A DNA stretch of 64,000 bases, from contig CAZWIJ010000002.1 in assembly GCA_964633865.1 (NCBI GenBank), positions 628 through 64,627 of the forward strand, read 5' to 3'. The translations under genes were made by a program, and so were the position numbers. Shown piece by piece: positions 5,766 to 39,754 of this stretch (position 1 is the first letter of the stretch; each line of letters opens with the position of its first letter). The notes under the pieces are model-generated. The model did not search any database. It was given only the letters and a program-made list of their open reading frames with translations, and was not told the DNA's origin. This DNA is from an uncultured Candidatus Saccharibacteria bacterium (GTDB taxonomy: Bacteria; Patescibacteriota; Minisyncoccia; SW-4-49-11).

Positions 5766-8360
5766 ATGATAAAAAAGTCTTCCAATATAGTTAATTTAAA
5801 GGAAGTTTATCAAGAAAAGTTAAATCAACAAAGATCTAAATTAACAGCATTAAACTTAAAAGAACTAAAACCTAAACTACCTTCTCAAAAAAAAGAAATT
5901 GAAGAAAGTAAGTCTTTTGATTTTACAGAAAATAATAATACCACTAAGGATGTATACGAAATAAATACTGAATTTGAAATAGATTTAAATTATGATATAA
6001 ATTTCGATCTTAATTTAGAGAAAGATTTCATAGATAATGAAAATTTAAATATCACCCCGAATCAAACAATAACTCCTACTATATTCGAAGAAGAAGTTAT
6101 TCCAGAGAAAATAATTCCTACTCCACAGATAGAACAACCTCCTATAATTAATCCAAAACATCCAATATTTAAAAAATTTGATTTTTCTTTTTATATCCAA
6201 AAGTTTAATTTTTTTAAAAATACAATCTCTCCAATATACCAAAAATTATTTCATCAATCACAGAATAATTTTAATCTAAAAAAGAACGGTTTATCTTTTA
6301 TACCAATAGAAAATAAATATAATTTTGAATTTAATGACATCAAAAAACAATATAAAACTAGATTTTCATTAAATGATTTTACATCATATGTTCAAAATTT
6401 ATCATTTTTATACCCTAAAAATAAAAAAGTTGCTATATCTTTTTTATCAATTACATTATTAACTAGCTTTTCATTCCCTAGCTTCAAATTAATGTATGAT
6501 GGATTAACTGTTAAAGATAATATTAATCTACAAATCGCAGCTAGTAAAGAGCTTTTTTCTAGAACAAATGATAATACCGATTTATATCTAACCCAAAATC
6601 TATTAGCTCTATCAAATGGACTAGATAAAACATCTAACGATATTGACTTATTACAAGGAAATCTATCTGGTATAATAAATTTATTACCTATACTATCTAG
6701 TGTTGGTGCTGGTGAAGAAGTATCTAAAGATCTTGCTAAAATTGCTTCACTATCAGCGGAATTATCAATAGCCATCAAACCATTGCTAGAAGAAAATTTT
6801 GATATGTTTGATATGAAAAATGCTAACACTACTACTGATACCATAAAAAAAACAAAATATATCTCTAAACAAATTCATGAAGAATTAAAATCACTAGAAA
6901 AAAACATGTCTAAAATAAATACTTCTGTCCTCCCAAAATCCAGTGTAGATGAAATAATATCAACAAAAAAAGCTTTACCTATAATTATAGATTTAACATC
7001 TGATACTGACAAATACTTTGATCTATTGCTAAATTTTATTGGTGAGAAAAGAGAAAAAAACTATTTATTTATTTTCCAAAACAACCAAGAATTAAGACCT
7101 ACTGGTGGATTTATAGGTAGTTATGGATTAGTCAAATTAGATCGTGGAATAATAAAAAAACTAGATATAAAAGAAATTTATAGTGCTGATGGGCAATTAT
7201 CCAAACAAATATTGTCCCCCACTCCTCTTCAAGAATTAAGCCAAAGATGGTTTTTCAGAGACTCCAATTGGTTTGCTGATTTTTCTTTAAGTTCAGATAA
7301 AATGATGAGATTTTATGAACAATCAGGTGGAATATCTACAGAGGGAGTTTTATCAATAACTCCAACTATTATAGAGAGAATTTTAAAAATTACTGGGCCT
7401 ATAACTTTAGAAAAATATAATGTAACAATATCTTCTGAAAATTTTATTGAGATAACTCAATTTCAAACAGTTCAAGAGAATGCTTTAGAATATAATAAAC
7501 CAAAGCAATTCTTGGCAGATTTAGCTCCTGTTCTTTTAAAAAAAATTATATCTTTAGAAATACCAAAACTAATTGAAGTCTCAGAGGTATTAAAACAAGG
7601 TATTCAAGAACGACTTATATTAGCTAACTTCAAAGATGAGGATTTACAAAACTTTGTAGAAGAGATCAATATGTCTGGCTCATTATATGATACAAAAAAA
7701 GATTATTTATCAGTAGTTAATACCAATCTAGGAGGATATAAAACTGATGGAGTCATAGATAATAATATAAAAATTGAAACAAGAATTGAAGAAAATGGAG
7801 CTATAATCAATAAAGTATCCATAAAAAGAAGTCACAACGGTGGCGATAAACAATATAAATGGTGGAATGTCCCTAATATTAATTATCTTAGATTGTATGT
7901 TCCTAAAGGAGCAAAAATTATAAAAGCAGAAGGATTTGAGGAAAGAGAAAAAGTTCAACTACCAGAATATACTAAAGATTATACTATAGATAAAGATCTA
8001 GAAGAGATTTATAAATCTGAAAAATTCATAGAAGAATTTAATATTACAGAAAGTATAGAATCTAATAAAACTGTATTTGGTGGTTGGAAAACTACAGGAA
8101 CTAAACAAACATCGGAAGTAAGTATAGAATATGAATTACCTTTCAAATTAAAAAAGAAAGATCTATATTCAATAATATTACAAAAACAAGCTGGAGATAT
8201 TAGATCTAAATACAATCAAAATATTGTATTAGATCCTAGCATAAAATTATCTTGGAGGAAATCGGCTGATGAAATATCAATCAACAAAAATAATATAAAT
8301 ATTAAAGAAAGTTTATTTAATAAAGATAAATTTTTAGTACTTGAATTGGATAGAAAATAA
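5766..8360 (+). CDS. Large DUF4012-like protein (N-terminal anchor, long extracellular region)
   Basis: Segment FQNNQELRPTGGFIGSYG resembles the NNAE.R.TGG signature I associate with DUF4012. 864 aa. Co-operonic with the glycosyltransferase and murB. Confidence 0.5.
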   Translation: MIKKSSNIVNLKEVYQEKLNQQRSKLTALNLKELKPKLPSQKKEIEESKSFDFTENNNTTKDVYEINTEFEIDLNYDINFDLNLEKDFIDNENLNITPNQTITPTIFEEEVIPEKIIPTPQIEQPPIINPKHPIFKKFDFSFYIQKFNFFKNTISPIYQKLFHQSQNNFNLKKNGLSFIPIENKYNFEFNDIKKQYKTRFSLNDFTSYVQNLSFLYPKNKKVAISFLSITLLTSFSFPSFKLMYDGLTVKDNINLQIAASKELFSRTNDNTDLYLTQNLLALSNGLDKTSNDIDLLQGNLSGIINLLPILSSVGAGEEVSKDLAKIASLSAELSIAIKPLLEENFDMFDMKNANTTTDTIKKTKYISKQIHEELKSLEKNMSKINTSVLPKSSVDEIISTKKALPIIIDLTSDTDKYFDLLLNFIGEKREKNYLFIFQNNQELRPTGGFIGSYGLVKLDRGIIKKLDIKEIYSADGQLSKQILSPTPLQELSQRWFFRDSNWFADFSLSSDKMMRFYEQSGGISTEGVLSITPTIIERILKITGPITLEKYNVTISSENFIEITQFQTVQENALEYNKPKQFLADLAPVLLKKIISLEIPKLIEVSEVLKQGIQERLILANFKDEDLQNFVEEINMSGSLYDTKKDYLSVVNTNLGGYKTDGVIDNNIKIETRIEENGAIINKVSIKRSHNGGDKQYKWWNVPNINYLRLYVPKGAKIIKAEGFEEREKVQLPEYTKDYTIDKDLEEIYKSEKFIEEFNITESIESNKTVFGGWKTTGTKQTSEVSIEYELPFKLKKKDLYSIILQKQAGDIRSKYNQNIVLDPSIKLSWRKSADEISINKNNINIKESLFNKDKFLVLELDRK

Positions 8361-12860: not shown

Positions 12861-14651
12861 TTATAAAGTTAACTCAAACTCTTTTATACCCTCCAAATCT
12901 TGTAGCAACTTTTCTTCATTGAGTTTATCCATATAATCTACTTGCAGATTTTTACTTTGGAGTACTGTTAGATGATATTTTATCTGATTATTATCTATAG
13001 TAATTTCTAAACTCAAACCTTGCTGGGTATCTGAAGAAAAAGTCTGATCAAAAATAAAATTACCTAAAGAATAAAAAATAGCTTTTCCATTGTAAATTTC
13101 AATTGGCTGTATCACATGAGGATGATGTCCAATCACAATATCAGCTCCTGCATCTATAAATTGATGAGCTTTTGATTGTTGAGAATTTGAGAAAACTTTT
13201 TTATATTCTATTCCCCAATGTGGATTTACAATAATAAGGTCTGTTTTGTCTGACAAATTCTTTATCTCTGCCAAAATTGGTGCCAAATCTGGATTACTAA
13301 ATTCATGATATCCCACAAAACCTATCTTATAACCTTTAATTTCTTTTATTAAACTTAAATCTTGATTCAAAGGATCTCCAAAATATTCTATTTGATTTTG
13401 GCTTAAATATTCTCTAGATTGAGCTAAGCCTTCTTTCCCAAAATTGAGTGAATGGTTATTAGCAAGTCCAAACAATCCAAAGTTTAATTCCTTTAGAGTT
13501 GGGACAATTTTAGGATCAAAAGTAAAAGACATATTATTTGGAGCAAGAGCTTTGGGTTTATAATCAGTAAAAGATCCTTCCAAATTAGCAATAACCAGAT
13601 CTTTTTCCAACAATTTTTCTTTTAGATTCACAAAAGAATATTCTACTCCTTTTTGATTAATAATTTGCCTAACATATCTATCCAACATCATATCTCCAAA
13701 AAACCATAAGTTGACTTTGTCTCGACTTTGTTTTGTTGGCTCACCTTTACTAAAATAACCTACAAGATAGCTGACAACTTCTTCTAAATCTGGATTGTTT
13801 AGTATTTTGGTAGAATTTGTATTTTTCAGTAATTCAAACTTTTTATATCCAACTTTTTCCAATATTTCCATATTAATTTTCAATGTTTTTGGAGAATCCA
13901 CATCCACTTCGGAGAAATTAGCATAGTCAAATTTTTGGATAATATTTAGACTTTTCTCGTCATTTCGATCACATAAATCACTGTCTGTATTGTGACAAAA
14001 ATCTAGCGAAGCCACAAAAAGATATTTTTCTGGTAAATTATCTGATAAAGTCTCAATAAAATTTTGTAAATCTGATTCTCTTGTTATGTCTTTGGTGATA
14101 ATGGGTAGAATCTTAGCATTAGGTAGATTTCGCTTGATAAATGGAACAATTCCAGAAATTCCATGCTCATTCAAAAAAGGCTTCTCGTCTATATTAATTA
14201 CTTGATCTCTTTTTAATAAATTAATCATATCCAAATCTGGTTCCAAAGTTCCATAGGGAGTTTTCCAACTATATTCAGAAGTTATCAAGCCCCCACTACC
14301 AGCTCCAAAATGATTTGGACTCATCAAAAACACTGTTAGCTCTTCATTAGTTTTCACTTGATTAAAATTTTCTGCTATAAGGTTTTTAGCAATCAAATGA
14401 TGAGGAACGATAATGGCTTTAATATCTTTTTTCTCTGTTGGCACTGATAAATTTTGGAAAGCTTCTTCAAAAAAATTTTTATCTTTAAGATAAGAATAAT
14501 GAATATTTGGATTTTCTGTACTTATAACAGACCCTAGTTGAACTAAATTATCTTTGTTATTTATTGTTTGATTTTTATTCCAAAGGTACACAACACTGAA
14601 ACTTAGAGCAGATATTAGTAGCAATATTATATATTTTAATTTTGTTTGCAT
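12861..14651 (-). CDS. Signal-anchored fusion: Memo1/AmmeMemoRadiSam-B-like domain + CapA/PGA_cap metallophosphatase-like domain
   Basis: N-terminal TM. AIIVPHHLIAKNL...LMSPNHFG...WKTPYGTL (Memo-like). C-terminal LWFFGDMMLDRYV...NPHWGIEYK...IGHHPHVIQP...YSLGNFIFDQ (CapA-type). Confidence 0.5.
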   Translation of the reverse strand: MQTKLKYIILLLISALSFSVVYLWNKNQTINNKDNLVQLGSVISTENPNIHYSYLKDKNFFEEAFQNLSVPTEKKDIKAIIVPHHLIAKNLIAENFNQVKTNEELTVFLMSPNHFGAGSGGLITSEYSWKTPYGTLEPDLDMINLLKRDQVINIDEKPFLNEHGISGIVPFIKRNLPNAKILPIITKDITRESDLQNFIETLSDNLPEKYLFVASLDFCHNTDSDLCDRNDEKSLNIIQKFDYANFSEVDVDSPKTLKINMEILEKVGYKKFELLKNTNSTKILNNPDLEEVVSYLVGYFSKGEPTKQSRDKVNLWFFGDMMLDRYVRQIINQKGVEYSFVNLKEKLLEKDLVIANLEGSFTDYKPKALAPNNMSFTFDPKIVPTLKELNFGLFGLANNHSLNFGKEGLAQSREYLSQNQIEYFGDPLNQDLSLIKEIKGYKIGFVGYHEFSNPDLAPILAEIKNLSDKTDLIIVNPHWGIEYKKVFSNSQQSKAHQFIDAGADIVIGHHPHVIQPIEIYNGKAIFYSLGNFIFDQTFSSDTQQGLSLEITIDNNQIKYHLTVLQSKNLQVDYMDKLNEEKLLQDLEGIKEFELTL

Positions 14652-14687: not shown

Positions 14688-17600
14688 TCAACCTAAAATT
14701 TTTCCACCTAATACTCTTTCTACTTCTTTTATATCAGTAATTCCTTTTAAAACAGCCATTATTCCAGCCATTTCTAAAGTTATCATACCTTCTTTAATTG
14801 CAATATCTTTTAATTCCTGAACATTTGTCATCTTTGGGATTAGTTTTTTTATTTCATCAGATATCACAAATATTTCGTAGATAGCTTGGATTCCCGAATA
14901 TCCGCTTTGATTTTTAAGAGATGGTGATGATTCATAGATAAAATCTTTCATATGATGACTATATTTTATACCTAATTTTTGTTTCAAAATTTCTTTTTCA
15001 CTATCTGTTAGCATTCTTTTTTGTTTGGTTTGTTCATCTAATTTTCTAATAATTCTTTGGGCTACACTAACATTTACAAAAGTTGCTATTTCTGTGAGCC
15101 CAATACCTAAATCGACTAATCTAAGTATTGCCGATGCTGCATCATTGGTGTGAAGTGTAGATAAAAGCAAATGACCTGTGGCTGCTGCTTGAATTGAAGT
15201 CTCAGCTGTCTCTTTATCTCTAATCTCTCCTATCAAAACAACATTTGGATTTTGTCTCAAAAGAGCACGAAGAGCATTAGAAAAAGTATAACCTGATTCA
15301 TTATTTACTGAAGTTTGAAGTATACCTGACATTTTATACTCAATTGGATCTTCAATGGTAATAATTTTTACACCTGGTTGATTGATTGTGTTTAGAGCTG
15401 CATATAATGTTGTAGATTTACCTGCTCCTGTTGGACCTGTGACTAAGATTAATCCTGTTGTTTTCTTTACTTCTTTTTCTAAAATAGCAAGATTATACTC
15501 ATCCATACCAAGTTCTGTCAAAGTTACTCCTTCAATATCTGATCTTAAGATTCTAAGTACTATAGTCTGTCCATATCCACCAGGAACAATTGAGACCCTA
15601 ACATCAAAATTTTCTTCTCCAAAAATTGTAAATCTTCCCTCTTGAATTTCATTAGCTATATCCAATCTCATTCCTGACATTATTTTTACTTGTCCTAGAA
15701 TCTGAGGATAAACTGATTTGGATAATCTAACAGCTTCCATCAAAACTCCATCTACTCTAAATCTGATTATAAGGTTAGCATTGTCTGGTTCTATATGAAT
15801 ATCTGTAGCTTTAGATTGAACTCCTGTTGCCATTATGATTTGTAATTGTTCGTCAATACTCATATCTTCCTTAATTTGATTAATTGTATCTAAAGTTACA
15901 TTTGTCTCTTTGTATTTCTTTAATCTCACTCCTCGGGATAGAGATGATGTCAAACTAGCTTCATAAAGATCATCTATATAATTTGTATTACCAGCAACTG
16001 ACTCAACTTCTACAAGTGAAGTTTCACCATCTAATGCATGCAAAACTCCATCTTGATAAAGTGTGATCATACCATTTTCGATGGATTTTCTAAAAATTTT
16101 AAATTCTGATTCATTCTTTAAGATTAAATCTGCAATATTCTCTTTCATCTCAAAAAGTTCATAAATTGCAAATCTACCTTTATATCCAATCCCTAAACAT
16201 TCTGGACATCCAACTGGTTTATATAAAGTATCCAAATCTCTTGGAATTGTAAGCCCTGATTTAGGAGAAATAACAGCCAAAGCTTTATTGATTTTTTCTT
16301 TTTCTATTTCATCTGGATGATATTCTTCCTTACAATGAGGACATAATCTTCTTAATAATCTCTGTGCCACAAAAAGATTCATAGCAGACACAACAACATT
16401 CGTATCCACATTAAATTCCTTCAATCTGGTCACAATTCCAATAGAATCATTTGTATGAATAGTAGAAAAAACTAAATGACCTGTAATCGCAGCATTGACA
16501 GCTATATTAGCTGTCTCCTTATCTCTAATCTCACCTACCATAACGACATCTGGATCTTGTCTCATAATAGCACGAAGTCCACTAGCAAAAGTATATCCTC
16601 TTTTTACATCTATTTGAGTTTGATTTACACTTTTAAGCCTATATTCAATTGGATCTTCAATTGTAATTATATTCACATCCGAGTGATTGATATAATTAAG
16701 AAAAGCATAAAGGCTCGTTGTTTTACCTGAACCTGTTGGACCTGAAAGCATTACTAAACCTTGTGGTTTATCTAAATTTCTAATAATTTTATCCAAAAAA
16801 ACATCTCTTATCCCAAAAGTATGCACATCTAATTTTTGCATATCTGGATTTAATAATCTCATAACAATCACCTCTCCATTTTTACCTGGAAGAATAGATA
16901 CCCTAACATCAATTGTTTTTAGTTTTACTCCATCCTCATCAGTAAGTACAATTGAAAATCTACCATCTTGAGAAGAAGTGGTAATATTAAGCATTAAAGA
17001 GGCTAAATTTTTTATTCTAGCCACAATAGATTTATAAAAAGTTTTATCAAAATTAATTATATCTTGTAAAACTCCGTCCACTCTATATCTCACCAGTGTA
17101 GAGGTTTCTTTTGGCTCTAAGTGAATATCACTTGTACCAGTAGCTAATGCTCCAGCACAAAAAGTTTGCATAAATTCTGAAATATCAGCTCCTTTTAATT
17201 TACTTGCCAAATATCCTAGACTCTCTATATTTTCTTCAAAAGTTGTCACTAACTTTTCTGGAACCAATAAAGTTTCTTTTAGGACTGGGGTTTTATCTTG
17301 AATAAATTTATATGCATCTAAACCTTTTTTTAAGCTCCTAGATGATATTAAATAGATATCCAAATTATATCCTTCTTGATAAAAGTATTGTAATAAATTT
17401 TTAGTTGTAGGATTATTTACATCCAAGAGGGCTATTTTTAGATTCATACCACCTCTTTGGAAAATAAGCATATTTGTAGCTTTAGCTTGCTCAATTGTAA
17501 TCAATTTTAAAGCTTCAGGATTGATTGGAATAAATTTAAGATTCAGATAAGGTATCCCTATTTCTTCTGCTCTTTTTTCTACAGCTAATTCTTCTGCTCT

Positions 17601-17693
17601 TACTTTCATATCAGAAAGAGTGTTAGTAAGATCTTTATCTTGCCTTAATCTTTGATGAAAACTTTTCCTTTCCCTTTCTTTTAGATATGCCAT
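14688..17693 (-). CDS. Tandem-duplicated (fused) GspE/PilB-type secretion/pilus ATPase, 1001 aa
   Basis: Two complete ATPase cores, each with Walker A (LSGPTGSGKTT; VTGPTGAGKSTT), IEDPIEY, a GEIRDKETA Asp box and an STIHTND/STLHTND His box. The first core carries the CPHC...CPEC tetracysteine; the second lacks it. A GspE_N-like N-terminal domain is present. Confidence 0.8.
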   Translation of the reverse strand: MAYLKERERKSFHQRLRQDKDLTNTLSDMKVRAEELAVEKRAEEIGIPYLNLKFIPINPEALKLITIEQAKATNMLIFQRGGMNLKIALLDVNNPTTKNLLQYFYQEGYNLDIYLISSRSLKKGLDAYKFIQDKTPVLKETLLVPEKLVTTFEENIESLGYLASKLKGADISEFMQTFCAGALATGTSDIHLEPKETSTLVRYRVDGVLQDIINFDKTFYKSIVARIKNLASLMLNITTSSQDGRFSIVLTDEDGVKLKTIDVRVSILPGKNGEVIVMRLLNPDMQKLDVHTFGIRDVFLDKIIRNLDKPQGLVMLSGPTGSGKTTSLYAFLNYINHSDVNIITIEDPIEYRLKSVNQTQIDVKRGYTFASGLRAIMRQDPDVVMVGEIRDKETANIAVNAAITGHLVFSTIHTNDSIGIVTRLKEFNVDTNVVVSAMNLFVAQRLLRRLCPHCKEEYHPDEIEKEKINKALAVISPKSGLTIPRDLDTLYKPVGCPECLGIGYKGRFAIYELFEMKENIADLILKNESEFKIFRKSIENGMITLYQDGVLHALDGETSLVEVESVAGNTNYIDDLYEASLTSSLSRGVRLKKYKETNVTLDTINQIKEDMSIDEQLQIIMATGVQSKATDIHIEPDNANLIIRFRVDGVLMEAVRLSKSVYPQILGQVKIMSGMRLDIANEIQEGRFTIFGEENFDVRVSIVPGGYGQTIVLRILRSDIEGVTLTELGMDEYNLAILEKEVKKTTGLILVTGPTGAGKSTTLYAALNTINQPGVKIITIEDPIEYKMSGILQTSVNNESGYTFSNALRALLRQNPNVVLIGEIRDKETAETSIQAAATGHLLLSTLHTNDAASAILRLVDLGIGLTEIATFVNVSVAQRIIRKLDEQTKQKRMLTDSEKEILKQKLGIKYSHHMKDFIYESSPSLKNQSGYSGIQAIYEIFVISDEIKKLIPKMTNVQELKDIAIKEGMITLEMAGIMAVLKGITDIKEVERVLGGKILG

Positions 17694-17694
17694 A

Positions 17695-18444
17695 TTATTG
17701 ATTCTTTTTCTTAATTCTGAAGTAAATAAATACTCCTAAACCAATTACTAATAATACTATTCCTAAAATTAATGGCCAAATTGGTGTTTTTGTCTCTTCT
17801 GATTCTTCTACTGAATTTTGATTATTTTGTGTTGAATTTGAATCTTGAAATCTTAGTAAAGTTGTTCCCTCTTGATCTCTTATTATTCCATTATTTGCTT
17901 GTAGTGTTTGTTCTGTTTTGGTGGAGTAGACAATGGGTTTATTTATATTTTCATCATAATAACAATCCATTATACAGCTAAGTTCTGTTTCTCCTTGCTC
18001 ATATTCACAAACATTGTTTTGGTTACAAGTAGCATATGTAGTCAAATCTATGTTCAGTTTTGCTCCTGTAGGGCTAATTATATTCAACTGTTTTGCATGA
18101 GGATAATAAGGTAACTGAATTGTATTTACTCCATTTCTTAAATTTTCTTTTACATAAATTGTCCATTTATAATCTGGTGAAAAACCTTCAAAATTAAGTT
18201 CTAAGTAATTATTGTTATTTCTAAAATTTGGATCATCTTTAAAATAGAATTCATATTCTGACTTTATATTAATTTCAGATACTTTTATATTGTTAATATT
18301 TTTATCCAAAAATAGATTATTATTTTCACTATATATATTAATATGATAATATTGCATAGAACTAGTATCTGCCCTAGATATCCTAAGACCCAATATTAAT
18401 ACTAGAATAAATATTAATTTCAGTAAGTTTTTCATATATTTCAT
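17695..18444 (-). CDS. Secreted Cys-rich protein with C-terminal TM anchor plus basic tail (paralog of 19590-20345)
   Basis: N-terminal signal peptide. CNQNNVCEYEQGETELSCIMDC. C-terminus PIWPLILGIVLLVIGLGVFIYFRIKKKNQ. Confidence 0.5.
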   Translation of the reverse strand: MKYMKNLLKLIFILVLILGLRISRADTSSMQYYHINIYSENNNLFLDKNINNIKVSEINIKSEYEFYFKDDPNFRNNNNYLELNFEGFSPDYKWTIYVKENLRNGVNTIQLPYYPHAKQLNIISPTGAKLNIDLTTYATCNQNNVCEYEQGETELSCIMDCYYDENINKPIVYSTKTEQTLQANNGIIRDQEGTTLLRFQDSNSTQNNQNSVEESEETKTPIWPLILGIVLLVIGLGVFIYFRIKKKNQ

Positions 18445-19586
18445 TTACATTTACCACTAACTTCGTCTTCCATCATTTTTTTACAAATAGTATTTGCATC
18501 TGTAGTATTTGTTTTATTATTAGGCTGACTACAACCTTTTATACTAGCCCATTGACAAAGCTTTTCATTTATTTTATTAGCAGGATTATTAAATGCTTCA
18601 CAATCAGTTAATCCTTTAGAATTTAAAAATTTAGCTACTGCCAAGTCTTGATTAGCTGGAGACATATCATAATCCATAGTACCAACTCCCCAGCCACTTC
18701 CTCTTCCTACTGTTGTTCTAGGAACATTTTTTGGAATACCAGCCGCCGCGGCCCATCCTGTCCATGTTGTATCTATCATTTGATATCTACCATAAGCTGT
18801 ACTATTACTTGCTGTTATTTTTCTAGGATGAAAATTTGGTGTATTTTTTATTGTTGAACCACCTACTGCAATATAATACGAATCCGCACTAACATTAGTA
18901 TGCTCATAAAAGTTTATCGTTCTCATAACTGCTTTTACTCCATCTGAAGCTGTTGAATCACTTAACTCTAGACAAGCTACATTTTCAGCTCCTACAGTAC
19001 TACTATTTCCTGTACCTGTTGCACCAGTATTACTTCCACTTACAGCTCCTCCCAAATTAACTTCTCTTGCCAAAAAATATGATGTACTATCACATTTCAC
19101 TCTAAATAAGCTAAAATCTTCTCCTTCTTGCTCAAATTGTAATGCATCAGATTCCGTTCCTCCTCCTCCAAATCCTATATTACTTACTTGAAATCCTAAC
19201 CCTACTAATATAAAATTAAACATTATGAATGCGGATAATGTTAATACTATTCCTAGTATTGCATTCTTAATTATGTCTACTCCTTGCTTATATTTACCTT
19301 GATCTCCTGAGGAGATTACCATATAAAATCCTCCTATTACTATACTTATTACTGCCATTACTCCTAATAATTGAAATAAAAAATTCATTATATCTCTTAC
19401 TAATATAAACATATCACATACTGTACAATCTCTTCCTACTCCACATTGTACCAATCCTCCTTCCGCTCCATACATTATATTGGGGAGCCAAATTAAACTT
19501 AGTATTACTTTTTGTATTATTTTTCTCATATAATATTTATAACTTATATTCAATTTAATTATATCATAGATTTCCTTCATCTTCAT
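18441..19586 (-). CDS. Fusion: signal peptide + VirB2/TrbC-like two-TM hairpin + Gly-rich linker + Rpf-like (transglycosylase-like/lysozyme-fold) domain
   Basis: TM hairpin IMNFLFQLLGVMAVISIVIGGFYMVISSGDQGKYKQGVDIIKNAILGIVLTLSAFIMF. C-terminal AYGRYQMIDTTWTGWAAAAG resembles the Rpf motif YYGGLQF..STW..YGG. Confidence 0.5.
   Translation of the reverse strand: MKMKEIYDIIKLNISYKYYMRKIIQKVILSLIWLPNIMYGAEGGLVQCGVGRDCTVCDMFILVRDIMNFLFQLLGVMAVISIVIGGFYMVISSGDQGKYKQGVDIIKNAILGIVLTLSAFIMFNFILVGLGFQVSNIGFGGGGTESDALQFEQEGEDFSLFRVKCDSTSYFLAREVNLGGAVSGSNTGATGTGNSSTVGAENVACLELSDSTASDGVKAVMRTINFYEHTNVSADSYYIAVGGSTIKNTPNFHPRKITASNSTAYGRYQMIDTTWTGWAAAAGIPKNVPRTTVGRGSGWGVGTMDYDMSPANQDLAVAKFLNSKGLTDCEAFNNPANKINEKLCQWASIKGCSQPNNKTNTTDANTICKKMMEDEVSGKCK
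19062..19500. repeat. ~440-bp near-identical direct repeat, copy 1 (copy 2 at ~20748-21190)
   Basis: Nucleotide sequence is almost identical across the 5' thirds of genes 18441-19586 and 20352-21221, with only a handful of substitutions visible. Confidence 0.8.
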
Positions 19587-19589
19587 TAT

Positions 19590-20345
19590 TTATTTTATTT
19601 TTTTCTTGATTCTAAAATAAATAAATACTCCCAAACCAATTATTAATAATACTATTCCTAAAATTAAAGGCCAGATAGGAGGATTTTTCTGATTTGTTTC
19701 AATTGAGTCATTATCTTGACTATTATCAGAACCAGAAATTCTAGTCAATGTAACTATTCCTTGATCATCTTTAATAAATCCATTTCCCTGATTTAACTTT
19801 TCTTGAGTTTGATCAGAATACACAATTGGCTCACCTGTATAATTAATACAATCTGGATTACACATAGAATCTTCATTTAGCTCGAATTCACAAATTAGAT
19901 TCTGATTGCAAGTAGAAAAATCTCCTACATCCAATGATAGAATATTTGTTTGAGTTTCTACTGACTTTATAGATAATTCCTGAACCCAATTAAGATAAGG
20001 GATTATAATTTCAAAAGATCCAACTTTTGGGTTAAACCCAAAATTATGTTTGTAAGTACCATCATTACCAATAAAATCTATATAAAACTTATATTTACTT
20101 GATTCATTTTCCCAATCCTTGTCACCTTCTACTCCTCTTGAAATCATACCTTGATAAGTATCTTCATCACTAATTTTAGAATTAAAAACTATATTAGGAT
20201 TAATACTTTTATCCAAACTTAGAATATTATTTGGCTCATCATAATATAAATATATTTTATAACCTTCAGCCCTAACAAAACTTGGAATCAAAAAACATAA
20301 TATTATAATGAAATTTAATAGATATTTTTTTAAAAAAGTATGCAT
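19590..20345 (-). CDS. Secreted Cys-rich protein with conserved C-terminal TM anchor (paralog of 17695-18444)
   Basis: CNQNLICEFELNEDSMCNPDC. C-terminus PIWPLILGIVLLIIGLGVFIYFRIKKKIK. Confidence 0.5.
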   Translation of the reverse strand: MHTFLKKYLLNFIIILCFLIPSFVRAEGYKIYLYYDEPNNILSLDKSINPNIVFNSKISDEDTYQGMISRGVEGDKDWENESSKYKFYIDFIGNDGTYKHNFGFNPKVGSFEIIIPYLNWVQELSIKSVETQTNILSLDVGDFSTCNQNLICEFELNEDSMCNPDCINYTGEPIVYSDQTQEKLNQGNGFIKDDQGIVTLTRISGSDNSQDNDSIETNQKNPPIWPLILGIVLLIIGLGVFIYFRIKKKIK

Positions 20346-20351
20346 AATTTT

Positions 20352-21221
20352 TTACTTTAAAATTTCCAATTTGACTTCTCCTGTACCATCAGCTTTCATA
20401 CCAATAGATTCTGCTGAACCTTGCGATAAATCTATAATTCTAGCATAATTACCAGCACCATCTTTAGTAAATGGACCTCTATCATTAATTCTAACTTCTA
20501 CAGATTTTCCAGTTTTTATATAAGTAACTTTTATTTTAGTTCCAAAAGGTAAACTTCTATGAGCTGCTGTCATTGCATTCTGATCAAAAGTCTCGCCATT
20601 AGCAGTTTTCCTCCCATGAAATCCTGGACCATAATAAGATGCTACTCCTTTTATTGTAGAAACCACTTCTCCGGAATCTGCCGTACTACTTCCTGTTCTT
20701 GCTGTAACACTTTCGCCCACTACACTTGTACCACCACCAACTAAATTCACCTCTCTTTCTAAGAAATATGAAGTACTATCACATTTCACTCTAAACAAGC
20801 TAAAATCTTCTCCTTTTTGCTCAAATTGTAATGCATCAGATTCTTCCCCACCTCCTCCAAATCCTATATTACTTACCTGAAATCCTAACCCTACTAATAT
20901 AAAATTAAACATTATGAATGCGGATAATGTTAATACTATTCCTAGTATTGCATTCTTAATTATGTCTACTCCTTGCTTATATTTACCTTGATCTCCTGAG
21001 GAGATTACCATATAAAATCCTCCTATTACTATACTTATTACTGCCATTACTCCTAATAATTGAAATAAAAAATTCATTATATCTCTTACTAATATAAACA
21101 TATCACATACTGTACAATCTCTTCCTACCCCACATTTTACCAATCCTCCTTCTGCTCCATACATTATATTGGGGAGCCAAATTAAACTTATTCCTATTAT
21201 TTTTTGTAAATACTTTTTCAT
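20352..21221 (-). CDS. Fusion: signal peptide + VirB2/TrbC-like two-TM hairpin + RlpA-type double-psi beta-barrel (DPBB) domain
   Basis: N-terminal ~150 aa nearly identical to 18441-19586. C-terminal ASYYGPGFHGRKTANGETFD...MTAAHRSLPFGTKIKVT...VEVRINDRGPF matches RlpA/DPBB_1. Confidence 0.6.
   Translation of the reverse strand: MKKYLQKIIGISLIWLPNIMYGAEGGLVKCGVGRDCTVCDMFILVRDIMNFLFQLLGVMAVISIVIGGFYMVISSGDQGKYKQGVDIIKNAILGIVLTLSAFIMFNFILVGLGFQVSNIGFGGGGEESDALQFEQKGEDFSLFRVKCDSTSYFLEREVNLVGGGTSVVGESVTARTGSSTADSGEVVSTIKGVASYYGPGFHGRKTANGETFDQNAMTAAHRSLPFGTKIKVTYIKTGKSVEVRINDRGPFTKDGAGNYARIIDLSQGSAESIGMKADGTGEVKLEILK
20748..21190. repeat. ~440-bp near-identical direct repeat, copy 2
   Basis: See copy 1. 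Confidence 0.8.
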
Positions 21222-21225
21222 ATTT

Positions 21226-22449
21226 TTAATGATGATGAGTATGAGAAATTTCTCCTTTTTTATTCTTCTTTAATTTTATTTTAGGGTGGGTATATACTTT
21301 TGCTGAAATAAAAGTAGTAATCGGCACTGCTAGCACTATTGCGAAACTACCTGCCATTGTCCTGATAATCTCTTGAGAAATATATTCTGAATTAAGGATA
21401 ACCCAAAGAGGATCATTTCTTTCATTTACATATAAAGTAAGAAATAAAGGAAGAGAAGCACCAACATAAGCCAAAGCAAGAGTATTAATCAAAGAAGCAA
21501 TATGTTCTCTACCAATAGAAACTCCTGCTAGATAAAGTTGTTTGAACTTAATCTTAGGATTAGCTCTTTTTATCTCATCTAAAGCTGAAGATTGAGCTAT
21601 AGTTACATCATCTAAAACCCCAAGCATACCGATCATTATTCCAGCAAGATATAGACCTTTTAGATCTATCGTAACATTATTTAGATCTTGAATTAAATAT
21701 TGAGTATAAAATGCTCCTTCTTCACCAGCCCCAAACATCAAAGAAATATTAGCAAAAAACCAAGATACAAAATATGAAAAAATAAAGGTTATCATCAAAC
21801 TAATAAAAGCTATTGTAGTTCTTAATCTAAATCCATGAGCCATAAACAAACTAATCGATGCTATAAATAAAGTACCTATTAGGGTCACTATTAAAGGATC
21901 TTGTCCTTTAATAATAGCTGGTAGTATATAACTCATTAAAACTAAAATACTCAAAAATAAACCTATAATTGAACCCAAACCTTTTAGTTTAGTCACAATC
22001 ATAGCAAATAAAAAGAAGATTCCAGTAACCATTAAAATACCATTTATTCTATCCCTATCATAAACAGAATAAGTTATTTCATTAGAATATTTATTTTCTG
22101 AGACAATTAATCTATCACCTTCTCTGTAAGTTTGACTTTTATCAAGATTTATAGAATTTGAACCCAAAACTTCAATCTGATCACCTTTTCTATCTCCATT
22201 TAAAATTTCAACCCTCAAATCTTGCTTTTTATAAAGAGTCCCATTAATTTCTTCTTCTATAGATTTAACCTCAATTACTTTAGCTTTTATAAATTTAGTT
22301 TCTGGAAAAGTATTTTCTTCCATAGATTCAACTTGGATATTAGGGATATCTTCTATATCTTCTATTATCTCTGTAGCAAAAACAAAATTAGAACTAATAC
22401 TTAGTAAAATTATTCCAAATATAATTATTATATTTTTTTTCATAAACAA
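21226..22449 (-). CDS. YibE/F-like polytopic membrane protein (N-terminal extracytoplasmic domain + multiple TM helices)
   Basis: Signal peptide, ~130 aa soluble domain, then at least 7 TM helices, then a His-rich C-terminus. Architecture fits YibE/F. Confidence 0.4.
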   Translation of the reverse strand: MFMKKNIIIIFGIILLSISSNFVFATEIIEDIEDIPNIQVESMEENTFPETKFIKAKVIEVKSIEEEINGTLYKKQDLRVEILNGDRKGDQIEVLGSNSINLDKSQTYREGDRLIVSENKYSNEITYSVYDRDRINGILMVTGIFFLFAMIVTKLKGLGSIIGLFLSILVLMSYILPAIIKGQDPLIVTLIGTLFIASISLFMAHGFRLRTTIAFISLMITFIFSYFVSWFFANISLMFGAGEEGAFYTQYLIQDLNNVTIDLKGLYLAGIMIGMLGVLDDVTIAQSSALDEIKRANPKIKFKQLYLAGVSIGREHIASLINTLALAYVGASLPLFLTLYVNERNDPLWVILNSEYISQEIIRTMAGSFAIVLAVPITTFISAKVYTHPKIKLKKNKKGEISHTHHH

Positions 22450-22524
22450 AAGTCTTATTTTAACCAGAATTCTAATTTAAATCTTTAATTAATTCTAACA
22501 TTTTTTATACTGAATGACAAATTT

Positions 22525-24156: not shown

Positions 24157-24326
24157 GTAGAATTTTAATTTAAAGTATTATTAATTTGATTTTTGGGGTT
24201 GTATTATTTGAAATTTTACCAATCTTATTTTTGGGATTTTATATTATGGCGACAGGGTGTCGCCTTTTCTTCTTTGACCAAATCCGACTTTTTAAGTATA
24301 ATATACACAAGATTAATTTATTTCTT

Positions 24327-24728
24327 ATGCAAAACTTTATTAAAAATTTCCAAGATTGGTTTTCTTTGAAACCTAAATTAGATAATAACAATCATAAACC
24401 ACCTTTTGTGTCAGAAAGAGATCTCTGGTGGTGCCATCTTGGGGAAAATATTGGAACTGAAATTAGTGGTAAATCTAATAGATACACAAGACCTGTTATT
24501 ATTTTTAAGAAACTTTCTAATTATACTTATTTAGTTATACCTACTTCTACAAAAATCAAATCTGGTTCTTGGTTTATAAATTTTGTCTATAAAAATACAA
24601 ATATGATAGCTTGTCTCAACCAAATAAGAGTTATTGACTATCGTAGAATACAAAATCAAATTGGAAAATTAGATATAAATGATTTTAAATCTATTAAAAC
24701 TGGATTTAAAAAATTATACAATTTGTAA
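24327..24728 (+). CDS. MazF/PemK-family toxin-like protein
   Basis: RPVIIFKKLSNYTYLVIPTSTK...ACLNQIRVIDYRRI matches PemK/MazF core motifs (RP.vv......vv.PlTs......dQir.vD..Rl). Start placed at the internal ATG at 24327, because a hairpin plus T-run (ggcgacagggtgtcgcc ttttcttcttt at 24249-24276) lies inside the longer called ORF. Confidence 0.6.
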   Translation: MQNFIKNFQDWFSLKPKLDNNNHKPPFVSERDLWWCHLGENIGTEISGKSNRYTRPVIIFKKLSNYTYLVIPTSTKIKSGSWFINFVYKNTNMIACLNQIRVIDYRRIQNQIGKLDINDFKSIKTGFKKLYNL

Positions 24729-24850
24729 AAAAAAGCCTCCTATCTCTAGGAGGGACGCGACTAGTGTCGAATACAAAATTATTATACCACACCCTTTCTC
24801 CCCTGTCAAATTTAAAATTTTAAAGGATTCACACTCTCTCTATCCTTTTA

Positions 24851-24992
24851 CAACCCCCGTCTCTTACGAGACACCCCCCTTCAAAAAAGGGGGATGAGAT
24901 ACAACTGCTTTAAATTCCCCTCTTGAGGGGTGGCACCGAAGGTGACGGGGTGGATTTCCGAAAAGGGGTAAAAATCTCTGATTTTTGGAGTT
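24851..24992 (+). repeat. GC-rich structured repeat element, copy B (3' flank of toxin gene), with ~60-bp internal insertion
   Basis: Same terminal blocks as copy A. Extra hairpins cccctcttgagggg, caccgaaggtg and gtctcttacgagac. Locally much higher GC than surroundings. Confidence 0.5.
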
Positions 24993-25056: not shown

Positions 25057-25668
25057 TTATTGGAATGATCCAGTTTGAACTCCTCCAAATACGAATGTTA
25101 AGATTGTATTGGAAGCTGTGAATGCAAAGAATAAGATAACCATACCGATAACTGCATTGGTCATTCTCTTCTGAGCTGTTTCTGTCTTTCCTGCATCTCC
25201 TCCTGCTGTTGCATATTCGAATCCAGCGATCAAGAAGATACCGAATACGATAATTCCCACAAATCCTAAGAACCAGTTAATTACTGTTGATATAGTTCCT
25301 ATCAAATCTTGTGATTGATTAAGCTCTGTGCTTACTAATACTCCAACTTGTCTTGTATTATCTCCTGTTAGATTTACACCTGTACTTCCTGAAGCACCAC
25401 CTACACATCTATTAGCAGTACATATATCAGATGCACACTCCCCATTAGTTGAACAATTCTGATTAGCTGCATATCTACATTTTCCAGCTACACCTGCTGT
25501 TGCATTCTTACATGCAGTTCCTGCTGTACACGTATTACCAGTAGGGCCTCCACAGTCTGCCCCATAATCAACAACTGCAGCATAACCATAGTTAGGAGCT
25601 ACTAATACTAGAGCGAATAGGAACATTGAAGCTATTCCTAAGCTTTTTAATAAATTAAGTTTTTTCAT
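25057..25668 (-). CDS. Secreted Cys-rich protein ending in a VirB2/TrbC-like two-TM hairpin (pilin-like family)
   Basis: Sec signal peptide. Cys-rich insert CGGPTGNTCTAGTACKNA...CSTNGECASDIC. C-terminal INWFLGFVGIIVFGIFLIAGFEYATAGGDAGKTETAQKRMTNAVIGMVILFFAF. Confidence 0.55.
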   Translation of the reverse strand: MKKLNLLKSLGIASMFLFALVLVAPNYGYAAVVDYGADCGGPTGNTCTAGTACKNATAGVAGKCRYAANQNCSTNGECASDICTANRCVGGASGSTGVNLTGDNTRQVGVLVSTELNQSQDLIGTISTVINWFLGFVGIIVFGIFLIAGFEYATAGGDAGKTETAQKRMTNAVIGMVILFFAFTASNTILTFVFGGVQTGSFQ

Positions 25669-25867: not shown

Positions 25868-26290
25868 TTATTGGAATGATCCTGTCTCAACTCCTCCAAA
25901 TACGAATGATAATATTGTATTAGAAGCTGTGAATGCAAAGAATAAGATAATCATACCTATTACAGCATTTATCATTCTCTTTTGAGCTGTTTCTGTCTTT
26001 CCTGCATCCCCTCCTGCTGTTGCATATTCAAATCCAGCAAGTAAGAAAATTAAGAATACGATAATTCCCACAAATCCTAAGAACCAATTAATTACAATCG
26101 AAATTGTTCCTATCAAATCTTGAGATTGATAAAGTTCTGTACTGACAAGTACTCCAACTTGTCTTGTATTGTCTGGCTGTAAATTTACACCTGATCCATC
26201 AGCATATCCATAACTAGGAGCTCCTAATAATATAGGAAATAGGAACATTATAGTTATTCCTAAATTTTTCAATAAATTAAATTTTTTCAT
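25868..26290 (-). CDS. Pilin-like two-TM hairpin protein (short paralog lacking Cys-rich insert)
   Basis: Signal peptide and C-terminal 100 aa ~90% identical to 25057-25668. The Cys-rich segment is replaced by DGSGVNLQPD. Confidence 0.55.
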   Translation of the reverse strand: MKKFNLLKNLGITIMFLFPILLGAPSYGYADGSGVNLQPDNTRQVGVLVSTELYQSQDLIGTISIVINWFLGFVGIIVFLIFLLAGFEYATAGGDAGKTETAQKRMINAVIGMIILFFAFTASNTILSFVFGGVETGSFQ

Positions 26291-26610: not shown

Positions 26611-26683
26611 GGGTATATAGCTCAGTCGGTAGAGCAGAGGACTCTTAATCCTTTGGTCGGTGGTTCGAACCCACCTATGCCCA
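26611..26683 (+). tRNA. tRNA-Lys (anticodon CTT), no encoded CCA
   Basis: Acceptor GGGTATA/TATGCCC (one G-U). D-arm GCTCAGTCGGTAGAGC. Anticodon stem GAGGA/TCCTT, loop CTCTTAA. T-arm GGTGGTTCGAACCCACC. Discriminator A then CAA. Confidence 0.8.
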
Positions 26684-26771
26684 CAAATATTATTTATGTT
26701 TTAAAAAATAAAAAAATAAGTACTTTGTAGAATATACTTATTATTATATTTTATAATTTTTTAGTCATTTA

Positions 26772-27104
26772 CTAAACTTGGAAAACAAACCCTATAATTG
26801 CATTTGTGAGAACAAAGGCAAAGAATAAAATTAAGGCTCCTATCACTGTATTTGTCAATATCTTTACTGAAGACTCTGCTTGTCCTTGATTTCCTCCTGC
26901 TGTTAGATACATGAATCCTGCATAAATTATTAAAATAAATACTATTATTCCTATAAAACCTAGAGTCCAATTAATAGTATTCTGAATATAATCTAAAAGA
27001 GTGCCTTGTGCTACTCCGGTAACACCTGGGTCAGGAATTGCTCCTACTGGAGGAAGTGACTCTTGACCTACAGTTGATGCTAATAATTTTATTGTATTTT
27101 CCAT
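26772..27104 (-). CDS. Pilin-like two-TM hairpin protein (110 aa)
   Basis: IQNTINWTLGFIGIIVFILIIYAGFMYLTAGGNQGQAESSVKILTNTVIGALILFFAF, the same module as the neighbours. Confidence 0.5.
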   Translation of the reverse strand: MENTIKLLASTVGQESLPPVGAIPDPGVTGVAQGTLLDYIQNTINWTLGFIGIIVFILIIYAGFMYLTAGGNQGQAESSVKILTNTVIGALILFFAFVLTNAIIGFVFQV

Positions 27105-27108
27105 ATTA

Positions 27109-27588
27109 TTATACTGCTAATACAGCACTTATTACATAATTTGTTATTAAAAAAGCTCCTATCATCAAAACTAGACCTATTGTAGCATTACTTATACTAG
27201 ATAGAGATTGTTTTGCTTTATTACTATCATCACCTGCTGTCATATAATTAAATCCACTCATCAATACTAAACCAAAAAACACAGTACCCACAAGTCCTAA
27301 TGCCCATCTTATAATTTGAGCTATATAACCTATCAGAGTACCTTCTGTTCTGATACCTGGATTAACTCCTAAAAATTCTCCAAGACCATCTTGTACTGGA
27401 GTTTCTGAGTTAGAATTTCCACCACCATCTTCTGAGGTAGTATCAACACATGTAGAAGTATCTTCGTCACAAACTTTTGGGTCAACACATGAGGGATTAC
27501 AAACAGCATAAACAGAGTTTATATTTATTCCTAAACTACATATTGATAATAAAGTCAGAGTAAAAAATATTTTTTTAGATAAGTTCAT
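27109..27588 (-). CDS. Secreted Cys-rich protein ending in pilin-like two-TM hairpin (159 aa)
   Basis: Signal peptide. CNPSCVDPKVCDEDTSTCVD. IAQIIRWALGLVGTVFFGLVLMSGFNYMTAGDDSNKAKQSLSSISNATIGLVLMIGAF. Confidence 0.5.
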   Translation of the reverse strand: MNLSKKIFFTLTLLSICSLGININSVYAVCNPSCVDPKVCDEDTSTCVDTTSEDGGGNSNSETPVQDGLGEFLGVNPGIRTEGTLIGYIAQIIRWALGLVGTVFFGLVLMSGFNYMTAGDDSNKAKQSLSSISNATIGLVLMIGAFLITNYVISAVLAV

Positions 27589-27630: not shown

Positions 27631-28962
27631 TTATTTCACAAATTCACTTACACTATCTGTAATATTTTGTTCTCCCTTCAGAATACTATCTATGGACTCC
27701 ACTATTCTTTTGTCTTCCTCATAATTATTGGGTTGTTTCCAACTCTGAGCTGTCAATATTTGATCTGCAAATACTCCATAAGTTGGATCCTGTTTTATCG
27801 TATTAACAAGATCTATCCTTGGACTAACTCTTTTAGTGAGTTCAAAATATTTTTGAGATGCTTCTTTGGAAGTAAGAAATTTCAAAAATTTATAAGATGA
27901 TTCAGAATTTTGTGATCTTTTAGCTACAGTATATCCCCAATAATTAGCATAATTAACAGGCAATATACTTGGATCATCTGATATCTGAGGTATTTTGGAT
28001 ACTCCATAATTTAATCTTGGTGATAATGTGGCTAATTGCTCTATATGATATCCATATCCTATCATCATAGCAGCTCTCTTTTGAGCGAACACATCTAGAG
28101 AGTAATTCTGAGCCAAATTCCAAGTATAAAGTGTACTTCTAGGATTAGCAAAATCTGTATAAAATTTTAAAACATTTTCAGCTGATGAAAGATAGTTTTT
28201 TGTTATTTCACTTCCTTCTCTATATTGTATAGTTCCACTTAAATCTATTCCTCCTTGTAACATAAGGAGAGATATAATATCTGGAGATCTTGCAATATTT
28301 GCACCAGCACCCATAGTTATACCAGCTTGAACAATATTTCCATTTAAATCAATTTTTGTTAATTGTTTAGATAAATTTTGAACTTCTTCCCAAGTTGTGG
28401 GTGGATCTTGTATATTTTCAATATAATATAAGTCCTTATTATAAAAGAATGCTAGTGTATCTATAAATAAAGGGAATCCCCAAATTTTTTCATCTTTTAT
28501 AAAATCATTAGGAACTACTTTCACAAAAGAACTGTAATACTCATCAAGAGTCATGACTGAATCTGGCATTGGTTGAGCTAGATTCATTATAGATGCCTGA
28601 TATGGCCATGTATGATGTATAGCAAATATATCAGGGCCTCTATCCTCAGCTAAAGCCTGTACTAACTCTTTTTCATAATCCGTAATTGCAACTTTTTTAT
28701 AGGTAATTTTTATTGTAGGATCTATAGACTGATAAGAGGTCGCTAGTTCATCTATAACTGATGATTCGTCCCATAATCCCCACATAATAATTTCTGTTTG
28801 TGGTACTTCTTCACCTTTTTTAACAACTGGTTCTTTATCTTTATTTTGAAACTGAGGACCTATAAATATCATACCTGCCACTGCTATTGCCATTACTAAA
28901 CCTGCAACAATAAACAACCATTTATTTTTTTCAAATGTATTTAATGAATGATTTGATGCCAT
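27631..28962 (-). CDS. Membrane-anchored extracellular solute-binding protein (ABC-type, family 1-like)
   Basis: N-terminal TM anchor, then IIMWGLWDE...ITYKKV..., length and composition typical of sugar-type SBPs. No cognate permease or ATPase adjacent. Confidence 0.45.
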   Translation of the reverse strand: MASNHSLNTFEKNKWLFIVAGLVMAIAVAGMIFIGPQFQNKDKEPVVKKGEEVPQTEIIMWGLWDESSVIDELATSYQSIDPTIKITYKKVAITDYEKELVQALAEDRGPDIFAIHHTWPYQASIMNLAQPMPDSVMTLDEYYSSFVKVVPNDFIKDEKIWGFPLFIDTLAFFYNKDLYYIENIQDPPTTWEEVQNLSKQLTKIDLNGNIVQAGITMGAGANIARSPDIISLLMLQGGIDLSGTIQYREGSEITKNYLSSAENVLKFYTDFANPRSTLYTWNLAQNYSLDVFAQKRAAMMIGYGYHIEQLATLSPRLNYGVSKIPQISDDPSILPVNYANYWGYTVAKRSQNSESSYKFLKFLTSKEASQKYFELTKRVSPRIDLVNTIKQDPTYGVFADQILTAQSWKQPNNYEEDKRIVESIDSILKGEQNITDSVSEFVK

Positions 28963-39250: not shown

Positions 39251-39754
39251 CTATTCAGCAATAGTTATGACTTTAGTTTTAAGCTCAGTAATAGCTTCTC
39301 TGATATCAAGAGCTTGTGCAGCTCTTTCAGACAATATTAATCCATCTGTACTTCTATCATTTATCCTTACCTTGATCATATGACTATTCTCAGGATTAAT
39401 AACTATAATCTCTGTGCCAAATGCCAAAGTGGGATGGGCTGCGGTGAAACTATTGGAATCAAAAAATTCACCACTTGCAGTTAGTTTCCCATTAAAGAAA
39501 GAATCACTCCATGAGGTAGAGATTAATATAATGTCACTTTCTATATTCTCATAATATGGATATTTTGAGACATTTTCTTTTTGTTCTGGCTTAAATAAAG
39601 CTCCAACAATATATATTGTAAAACCAGAAATAATAATTGCTAATACAAGATAACCCACATAGAAATATCTTGTATTTCTATTAATATAATTTTCTTGATT
39701 CTCTTGTTTTCTTTTCTCAAATTTTCTTCTTGATCTAGATCTTGATATTGACAT
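39251..39754 (-). CDS. RlpA-like DPBB domain protein, N-terminally anchored (paralog)
   Basis: GKLTASGEFFDSNSFTAAHPTLAFGTEIIVINPENSHMIKVRINDRSTDGLILSERAAQALDI. Confidence 0.65.
   Translation of the reverse strand: MSISRSRSRRKFEKRKQENQENYINRNTRYFYVGYLVLAIIISGFTIYIVGALFKPEQKENVSKYPYYENIESDIILISTSWSDSFFNGKLTASGEFFDSNSFTAAHPTLAFGTEIIVINPENSHMIKVRINDRSTDGLILSERAAQALDIREAITELKTKVITIAE

Follow-up and report, generated by a model that had tools for sequence, protein, structure and literature searches.

Pilin-hydrolase fusions and their anchored cysteine-motif partners form a conserved two-gene cassette in ultrasmall Patescibacteria

The type IV secretion systems (T4SS) of Patescibacteria have VirB2-like pilins of family PF18895, which are often encoded in arrays of 2-11 genes, and the T4SS with its VirB2-like pilin array is essential for the epibiotic growth of Southlakia epibionticum (PMC12102498, PMC10633639, PMC12857230). 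Homologues of VirB1 are reported to be mostly absent, and 'other glycosidases' have been proposed (PMC12102498, PMC10633639, PMC12857230). According to a 2025 survey, a VirB1 wall hydrolase is missing from most Patescibacteria that possess VirB2-like pilins. In published counts a pilin lies near virB4 in ~58% of pilin-bearing assemblies. Southlakia has short pilins, and its multidomain hydrolase SEML1_0006 is encoded separately from them. The present analysis concerns a 64-kb stretch of DNA (referred to throughout, at its full length, as the window) from an uncultured Candidatus Saccharibacteria bacterium, contig CAZWIJ010000002.1, in which VirB2-like pilin modules are fused to peptidoglycan hydrolase domains and each fusion gene is followed by a gene for an anchored protein with a four-cysteine motif. 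This pair of fusion and anchored Cys partner is the conserved unit, a two-gene cassette of ultrasmall Patescibacteria. Two copies of it stand in a block of six minus-strand genes in the window, between a gene for a YibE/F-family membrane protein and a gene for a tandem PilB/GspE-type ATPase.

The closest described relatives of the locus are the pilin arrays of the Patescibacteria T4SS (PF18895/PF04956; Southlakia SEML1_0014-0019; Quinonero-Coronel et al. 2025), with which the window shares the Pfam family, the Sec-type signals, and the organization into multi-gene sets of divergent paralogues. Unlike the Southlakia arrays, two of the window pilin modules carry peptidoglycan hydrolase domains of 150-230 residues and are accompanied by a dedicated anchored partner, and no virB4 lies near the pilin genes of the window. 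Such fused hydrolases were probably counted as pilins in the 2025 survey. A second comparison is with the VirB1-like hydrolases of Gram-positive T4SS (PrgK, pIP501 TraG, TcpG, CD419/TrsG), which are likewise membrane-anchored muramidases or lytic transglycosylases, include cysteine peptidase domains as do relatives of the cassette, and are presumed to open the wall locally for a trans-envelope structure. The cassette differs from them in that its anchor is a VirB2-type pilin hairpin and not a simple transmembrane (TM) helix, each protein has a single, freely exchanged catalytic domain and a conserved partner gene, and the window cassette is not part of a virB4 cluster. No description of pilin-hydrolase fusions or of the Cys-rich partner family was found in the literature, and neither these nor a link to PilB are mentioned in PMC12102498, PMC10633639, or PMC12857230.

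The first fusion, encoded at 20352..21221 on the minus strand, is a protein of 289 residues with matches to T4SS_pilin (4.6e-9) and DPBB_1 (1e-21). A Sec signal peptide and a CGxxxxCTxC motif precede a two-TM VirB2-like pilin module (residues 46-108), which is followed by a conserved Cys-containing neck and an RlpA-type DPBB lytic transglycosylase domain (residues 191-284). The protein scores 135.9 bits against TIGR00413 rlpA (cutoff 82.15); the NDRGP catalytic-Asp motif of the DPBB domain was recognized by eye ('RINDRGPF') and the SPOR domain is absent. A separate RlpA-like protein of 167 residues with a DPBB_1 domain and no pilin module is encoded elsewhere in the window, at 39251-39754 on the minus strand. 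The second fusion, of 381 residues (18441..19586, minus strand; T4SS_pilin 4e-9), probably begins at Met20, ~19529, as the alignment with its paralogues suggests; one intergenic gap would then grow to ~60 nt. The PF18895 scores of the two fusions are 36.7 and 36.9 bits against a gathering cutoff of 26.6. From the sequences and an alignment to four short pilins of the window, both begin with a Sec signal peptide, after which come two TM helices that form a hairpin around a short basic loop; no class-III leader motif is present. Hence the initial annotation was right to see in each protein a VirB2-style hairpin joined to a peptidoglycan-cleaving module, a functional fusion of VirB2 and VirB1 that bears an ordinary Sec signal.

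The same annotation had named the two lytic domains as DPBB and Rpf-like, of which only the first holds. No match of the 381-residue protein to Rpf (Transglycosylas, PF06737) was obtained in Pfam or NCBIfam at E<=0.1, and that identity was rejected. Its C-terminal domain (residues ~195-381) matches the phage endolysin family phrog_90 at 6e-9 over domain residues 16-186, and lambda R lysozyme at 2e-7 by BLASTP, in an alignment that spans the HPRK and GRYQ motifs. The presumed catalytic Glu, that of 'FYEHT', falls outside the BLAST alignment, the search of PDB sequences with phmmer reached only E=0.45, and there is no Pfam match. The domain is better described, by these similarities, as lambda-R/phage-endolysin-like and a putative muramidase or lytic transglycosylase. 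The two window pilin modules are ~97% identical, within a 300-nt repeat at 94% identity, and no relationship is seen between the catalytic ends. The 162-residue pilin module returned no match in a word-indexed search for homologues, being too divergent for that method.

The partner genes lie directly behind the fusion genes, at 19590..20345 (cassette 1) and 17695..18444 (cassette 2), both on the minus strand. Neither partner has a Pfam match. The first represents a new family; its predicted layout is a signal peptide, a beta-sandwich ectodomain, a linker, a C-terminal TM helix and a basic tail, with an invariant motif of four cysteines (C146, C152, C162, C166). The second partner, also of ~250 residues, is another member, 37% identical to the first overall, and the two TM tails are near-identical (111 nt, 82%). 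The proposal that the cassette is duplicated and that its Cys-rich proteins are anchored at the C-terminus is thus borne out. A word-indexed search gave only 4 matches to the Cys protein and made the family look very narrow. An exhaustive profile search raised the number to 208 representatives (97 with E<=1e-10), all 200-260 residues long and with a common architecture of signal peptide, beta-rich domain, invariant CNxNGICExExGExxxTCxxDC motif, YS..T..L..NNG.I.D segment, linker, TM helix and basic tail.

The profile of the partner family had no match among PDB sequences at E<=10, and the partner does not resemble any known immunity protein or inhibitor of lysozyme. An AlphaFold2 model of the Cys protein from 5 sequences reached a mean pLDDT (predicted local distance difference test score) of 52 and its Foldseek search returned only noise (E>0.1), so both were discarded. 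An LPXTG-type sorting signal was also considered and rejected: TIGR01167 scored 15.8 bits (cutoff 15.9) and covered only the TM helix and tail, and no conserved sorting motif precedes the TM helix in a 50-sequence alignment of the family. In locus L118 a gene for a DsbA-like thioredoxin (7025-7759) directly precedes a series of genes for long pilin fusions and one of the Cys family, an arrangement consistent with the disulfide needs of Cys-rich exported proteins.

The conservation of the pair is seen in a scan of metagenome contigs with the Cys profile, which retrieved 38 loci totalling 326 kb. The scan used a 10-sequence subset, since the 50-sequence alignment was too diverse, and the loci are for this reason weighted in favour of those related to the window; the gene calls were longest open reading frames (ORFs), which is crude, and the hidden Markov model of the window pilins loses sensitivity with distance. 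Of the 34 usable cases, 28 had a T4SS_pilin module in the gene that directly precedes the Cys gene on the same strand (proteins of 266-681 residues). The six misses were ORFs cut by the contig start, so that every complete upstream gene (28/28) carried the module. Among the long fusion proteins, 33 of 34 exceeded the Pfam gathering threshold for T4SS_pilin, and their C-terminal domains included SLT, SLT_3, DPBB, Peptidase_C39-like, CHAP and C70. Downstream of the Cys gene a short T4SS_pilin gene followed in 15 of 22 cases.

The surroundings of the cassette also recur. For example, locus L090 shows the order Lactamase_B_3, GyrA, methyltransferase, solute-binding protein (SBP), fusion, Cys protein and five pilins, on a backbone common to L087-L099 that corresponds to 25-32 kb of the window, with the difference that the cassette heads the pilin array. 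The distant locus L124 is likewise ordered SBP, fusion, Cys protein. Upstream proteins were also considered as VirB4 candidates: the 830-residue protein of the relatives is GyrA by Pfam, and the 895-932-residue proteins of distant loci, with no Pfam match and no P-loop family reported, give no sign of being VirB4. Stacked cassettes are found in L120 (10-1632; Cys, fusion, Cys), and 3-5 serial fusions in L118 (7746-15628) and L122 (4372-8315), which makes multiplicity a trait of the family and not a peculiarity of the window.

The window shares its six-gene order with one close relative, L001, and the comparison of the two reveals an exchange of modules. Their pilin modules are 91% identical, and the C-termini of cassette 2 are unrelated. 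Within the window, as within L001, the paired pilin modules are essentially identical. The identity of orthologues is 93% for the ATPase, 92% for SerRS, 90% for the pilin-DPBB fusion, 75% for YibE/F and 71% for the first Cys partner, and it falls to 44.5% for the second Cys partner, which belongs to the swapped hydrolase. A similar pattern is found in the L087-L099 clade, where partner similarity averages 0.84 for pairs with like hydrolases and 0.43 for pairs with unlike ones, with pilin-module similarity equal in both groups (0.89 and 0.91, respectively). In a partial Mantel test over 30 pairs, hydrolase and partner covaried (r=0.51, p ~5e-4). In these comparisons hydrolase and Cys partner are exchanged together against a constant pilin module, and cognate pairing of the two is likely.

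The ATPase that ends the block (14688..17693, minus strand) is a protein of 1001 residues with an MshEN N-domain and two T2SSE stretches. Each half keeps an intact Walker A, Asp box, Walker B and His box, and the CxxC...CxxC tetracysteine zinc motif is confined to half 1. Matches to PilB 3jc8 in the PDB are 2.5e-96 and 6e-76 for the two halves, and the scores summed over the two stretches are 818 bits for TIGR02533 and 800 bits for TIGR02538. The VirB11 and TrbB profiles stay below cutoff (TIGR02788, 95 bits vs 250; TrbB, 103 bits vs 305). Of the wider GspE/PilB/VirB11 assignment first given to it, the PilB/GspE part therefore stands and the VirB11 part does not; judged by their motifs and profile scores, both halves are of PilB/GspE type and apparently active. 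As in PilB and GspE (M. xanthus PilB 3jc8, G. metallireducens PilB 5tsg, V. cholerae GspE 4ksr), the halves align over the N2 and C-terminal ATPase domains, and the first resembles them also in its MshEN-type N-domain and zinc motif. The differences are that two full ATPase units lie in one chain of ~1000 residues and that the gene is an orphan, apart from pilC, pilM and prepilin genes. If the chain forms the usual ring, a trimer acting as a pseudo-hexamer would be implied. No tandem or fused PilB ATPase was found described in the literature.

In other genomes this ATPase keeps company of its own. Among its best 120 matches, 118 are 950-1110 residues long, at 40-62% identity, and are labelled Minisyncoccia, Moranbacteria and Parcubacteria. 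The nearest clade after L001 comprises four loci at 60-62% identity, in which the surroundings are invariably PGK|ATPase-TsaE-PfkB-FemAB and T4SS_pilin is absent, and a relative at 43% identity sits between guaA and ruvB. In 16 species-representative genomes with the tandem ATPase the pair ATPase-RuvB is seen in most, and T4SS_pilin genes lie nearby in only two Moraniibacteriota loci, L004 and L005. No T4SS_pilin was found within 10 kb at 19 of 22 other tandem-ATPase loci, the 60-62% clade included. Across the whole set (window; L002-L018, L023, L084-L086) the gene almost never adjoins pilC, prepilin or T4SS_pilin genes, and ruvB is the gene most often found next to it. The tandem ATPase thus forms a single-gene family in its own right, widespread in Patescibacteria and an orphan among housekeeping genes; in the lineage of the window it is probably co-transcribed with the block, yet it lies outside the conserved cassette. 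A synteny L004 might have suggested as ancestral, of SBP gene, pilin array and tandem ATPase, was dropped for want of loci.

The YibE/F-family gene at the other end of the block (21226..22449, minus strand) was correctly identified from the outset (Pfam YibE_F, PF07907, 5e-66, 223 bits, spanning profile positions 1-240 of 241). It adjoins the cassette in L001 and in the window, and is absent from all 38 cassette loci, as is any T2SSE ATPase (0/38 loci, 326 kb). ATPase and YibE/F are lineage-specific neighbours of the cassette.

The explanation that accounts best for these observations, and one that we regard as probable, is that the block is a juxtaposition of independently conserved parts, the cassette pair, the tandem ATPase and YibE/F, and that the cassette provides VirB1-like cutting for T4SS or pilin arrays. 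The fusion would be exported by Sec, and its VirB2-like hairpin would take up the orientation of VirB2/TrbC pilins, in which the C-terminus is outside; this predicted topology would hold the fused hydrolase on the outer membrane face, or the hydrolase could be carried into a VirB2-type pilus. Most likely the hydrolase nicks glycan strands locally so that a pilin or T4SS structure may cross the cell wall, in the manner of VirB1. The anchored partner would most likely bind the hydrolase domain with which it is paired, and so regulate it, inhibit it or serve it as a docking site. The wall of a host is a live alternative target.

Several observations weigh against this explanation. In L093 the hydrolase has been swapped and the partner is conserved, an exception to the paired exchange, and the joint replacement of the two could follow from adjacency, as a single recombination tract covering both. 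Neither the window nor the cassette loci examined yielded virB3, virB4, virB6 or any other T4SS core gene, and with no core genes nearby the link to a T4SS is drawn from the Pfam family and the published co-occurrence statistics. As for the separateness of the ATPase, its start lies 1 nt from the cassette in both the window and L001, a five-gene pilin array is directly upstream of it in L004, and one pilin is near it in L005, which leaves room for some functional link between ATPase and cassette. A class-III leader occurs within 10 kb at 1 of 23 tandem loci, as compared with 38 of 61 loci of single PilB.

The strongest rival to an accessory of the producer's own wall is a host-directed polymorphic effector with immunity, in which the pilin delivers exchangeable lytic 'warheads' on a VirB2-type pilus and the Cys protein protects the wall of the producer; we consider it possible, and clearly less probable than cutting of the VirB1 type. 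Effector and immunity systems such as T6SS (type VI secretion) Tae/Tge-Tai/Tgi, T7SS (type VII secretion) LXG, and contact-dependent inhibition (CDI) similarly combine a constant N-terminal module with variable wall-degrading C-termini and a neighbouring gene that evolves fast and changes whenever the C-terminus does. The homogenized pilin module with enzymes swapped between close relatives, the several cassettes or fusions with different enzymes at one locus (window; L103, L118, L120, L122), and the covariation of a fast-evolving partner with the enzyme domain all resemble this pattern, and the repertoire of glycan-cleaving and cysteine-peptidase domains is that of T6SS and T7SS wall effectors. 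Moreover, cultivated Patescibacteria are obligate episymbionts, and epibiotic growth of Southlakia requires the T4SS and its pilins. On the other hand, the N-terminal module here is a conjugative-type pilin, and there is no evidence that PF18895 polymerizes or that a pilus tolerates a C-terminal domain of 150-230 residues. The partner is one family, a 230-residue anchored beta-sandwich, in place of unrelated small immunity proteins, and lacks similarity to known inhibitors. The same SLT and CHAP domains are carried by Gram-positive VirB1-like proteins, which act on the producer's own wall, and adjacency alone could explain the joint replacement.

A bolder combination of these ideas, a modular wall-breaching kit of pilins with exchangeable hydrolases and immunity or docking partners mounted on a T4SS pilus to open the host wall, appears unlikely. 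The orphan tandem PilB ATPase would perhaps serve, within that picture, as a dedicated motor for pilin arrays distant from virB4; this role is the less likely element of it.

It is more doubtful still that the fusions are housekeeping autolysins, that is, hydrolases of wall turnover or division with the two-TM module as a mere anchor, the Cys protein as a regulator and no link to secretion or pili. RlpA is a family of septal lytic transglycosylases (TIGR00413), the flanks include wall-related or housekeeping genes (PGA_cap/Memo, SerRS, GyrA), and T4SS core genes are not nearby, as such a role would have it. However, the anchor passes the T4SS_pilin gathering threshold in all but one of the fusions, the cassette is consistently contiguous with short VirB2-like pilin arrays, and housekeeping autolysins do not usually swap their enzyme domains so fast between close relatives.

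The last reading, that of the initial annotation, is a minimal machine made of all six genes, with the tandem PilB-type ATPase as the motor that extrudes the pilin fusions. The six minus-strand ORFs were confirmed in their order and coordinates, with gaps of 4, 6, 3, -4 and 1 nt (within the -4 to 6 nt first reported), and the same order in L001 speaks for such a unit. So does the absence of a convincing terminator: between 22.4 and 12.1 kb the minus strand has one weak terminator-like site, at 17022-17001, inside the ATPase gene. Nearly all genes from 12 to 60 kb are on the minus strand, though, and with this bias and the missing terminators the head-to-tail order is weak evidence for a six-gene unit. 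A promoter-like site upstream of the YibE/F gene (22492..22520, minus strand; TTGTCA, a 17-nt spacer, TG, and TAGAAT) is a consensus match only; such sites are not commoner than in shuffled sequence, and operon boundaries were therefore not drawn from them. The pilins near the tandem ATPase in L004 and L005, and the rarity of class-III pilins beside it, which leaves it with no obvious type IV pilus partner, would also suit the machine. PilB/GspE motors work via PilC-type platforms on class-III pilins, and VirB2-type pilins rely on VirB4-type systems. No class-III pilin is present, and no PilC, prepilin peptidase, VirB4, VirD4 or VirB6 was found anywhere in the window, four of which had already been recorded as missing from it. 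The six-gene order recurs only in L001. With ATPase and YibE/F adjoining the cassette only in this lineage, the six-gene machine is unsupported: it is largely refuted on co-conservation, by the 0/38 cassette loci and the 19/22 tandem-ATPase loci given above, and very improbable as an explanation.

The relevant context of the cassette lies upstream of the block and had been overlooked: four short VirB2-like pilin genes (25057-25668, 25868-26290, 26772-27104 and 27109-27588, minus strand; T4SS_pilin at 1e-7, 3.5e-7, 3.2e-5 and 1.5e-7) and a gene for a family-1 SBP (27631..28962, minus strand; Pfam SBP_bac_1/8 2e-20). The products of the first two pilin genes listed share 89% identity in the hairpin, and one has a 60-residue Cys-rich insertion after the signal peptide. 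Each of these two genes has its own near-consensus promoter (26380-26352 and 25762-25734) and a similar terminator hairpin (25846-25813 and 25031-25006). A tRNA-Lys(CTT) gene (26611-26684, plus strand) lies within the array on the opposite strand, between the second and third pilin genes. The SBP gene recurs directly upstream of cassette or pilin array in several distant lineages (window 27631-28962, L001 1-1287, L004 3560-4948, L090 4740-6089, L124 5132-6508), with no genes for ATP-binding cassette (ABC) permeases or ATPases adjoining.

Other neighbours may be noted briefly. Downstream of the ATPase by 36 nt, with no terminator between, is a gene for a Memo-like and PGA_cap fusion protein (12861-14651, minus strand); in L001 it is farther from the ATPase, beyond four inserted genes. 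One of the very few plus-strand genes between 12 and 60 kb encodes a MazF/PemK-like toxin (24186-24897). On the minus strand of this region a perfect -35/-10 match (24809-24781) is followed after ~30 nt by a terminator-like hairpin (24753-24736), a pair that could represent a very short antisense transcript or chance. The gene at 34686-35504 (minus strand) resembles Tox-REase-2, a toxin with the fold of restriction endonucleases, only weakly and below threshold (1.2e-4, 22.8 bits vs cutoff 27.6).

The pair of fusion and partner is a real and conserved accessory of VirB2-like pilin arrays, and apparently an undescribed one. For at least part of the phylum the cassette offers a concrete answer to the missing VirB1, namely a hydrolase fused to a pilin paralogue. 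The tandem PilB-type ATPase, in turn, is a widespread and apparently undescribed architecture of a well-studied motor that has no obvious partner genes. The conserved partner family is new, and the paired swapping of domains makes the question of own wall versus host wall testable. The cassette also bears on the VirB2-like pilin array that is essential to epibiotic growth in the one genetically tractable Patescibacterium.

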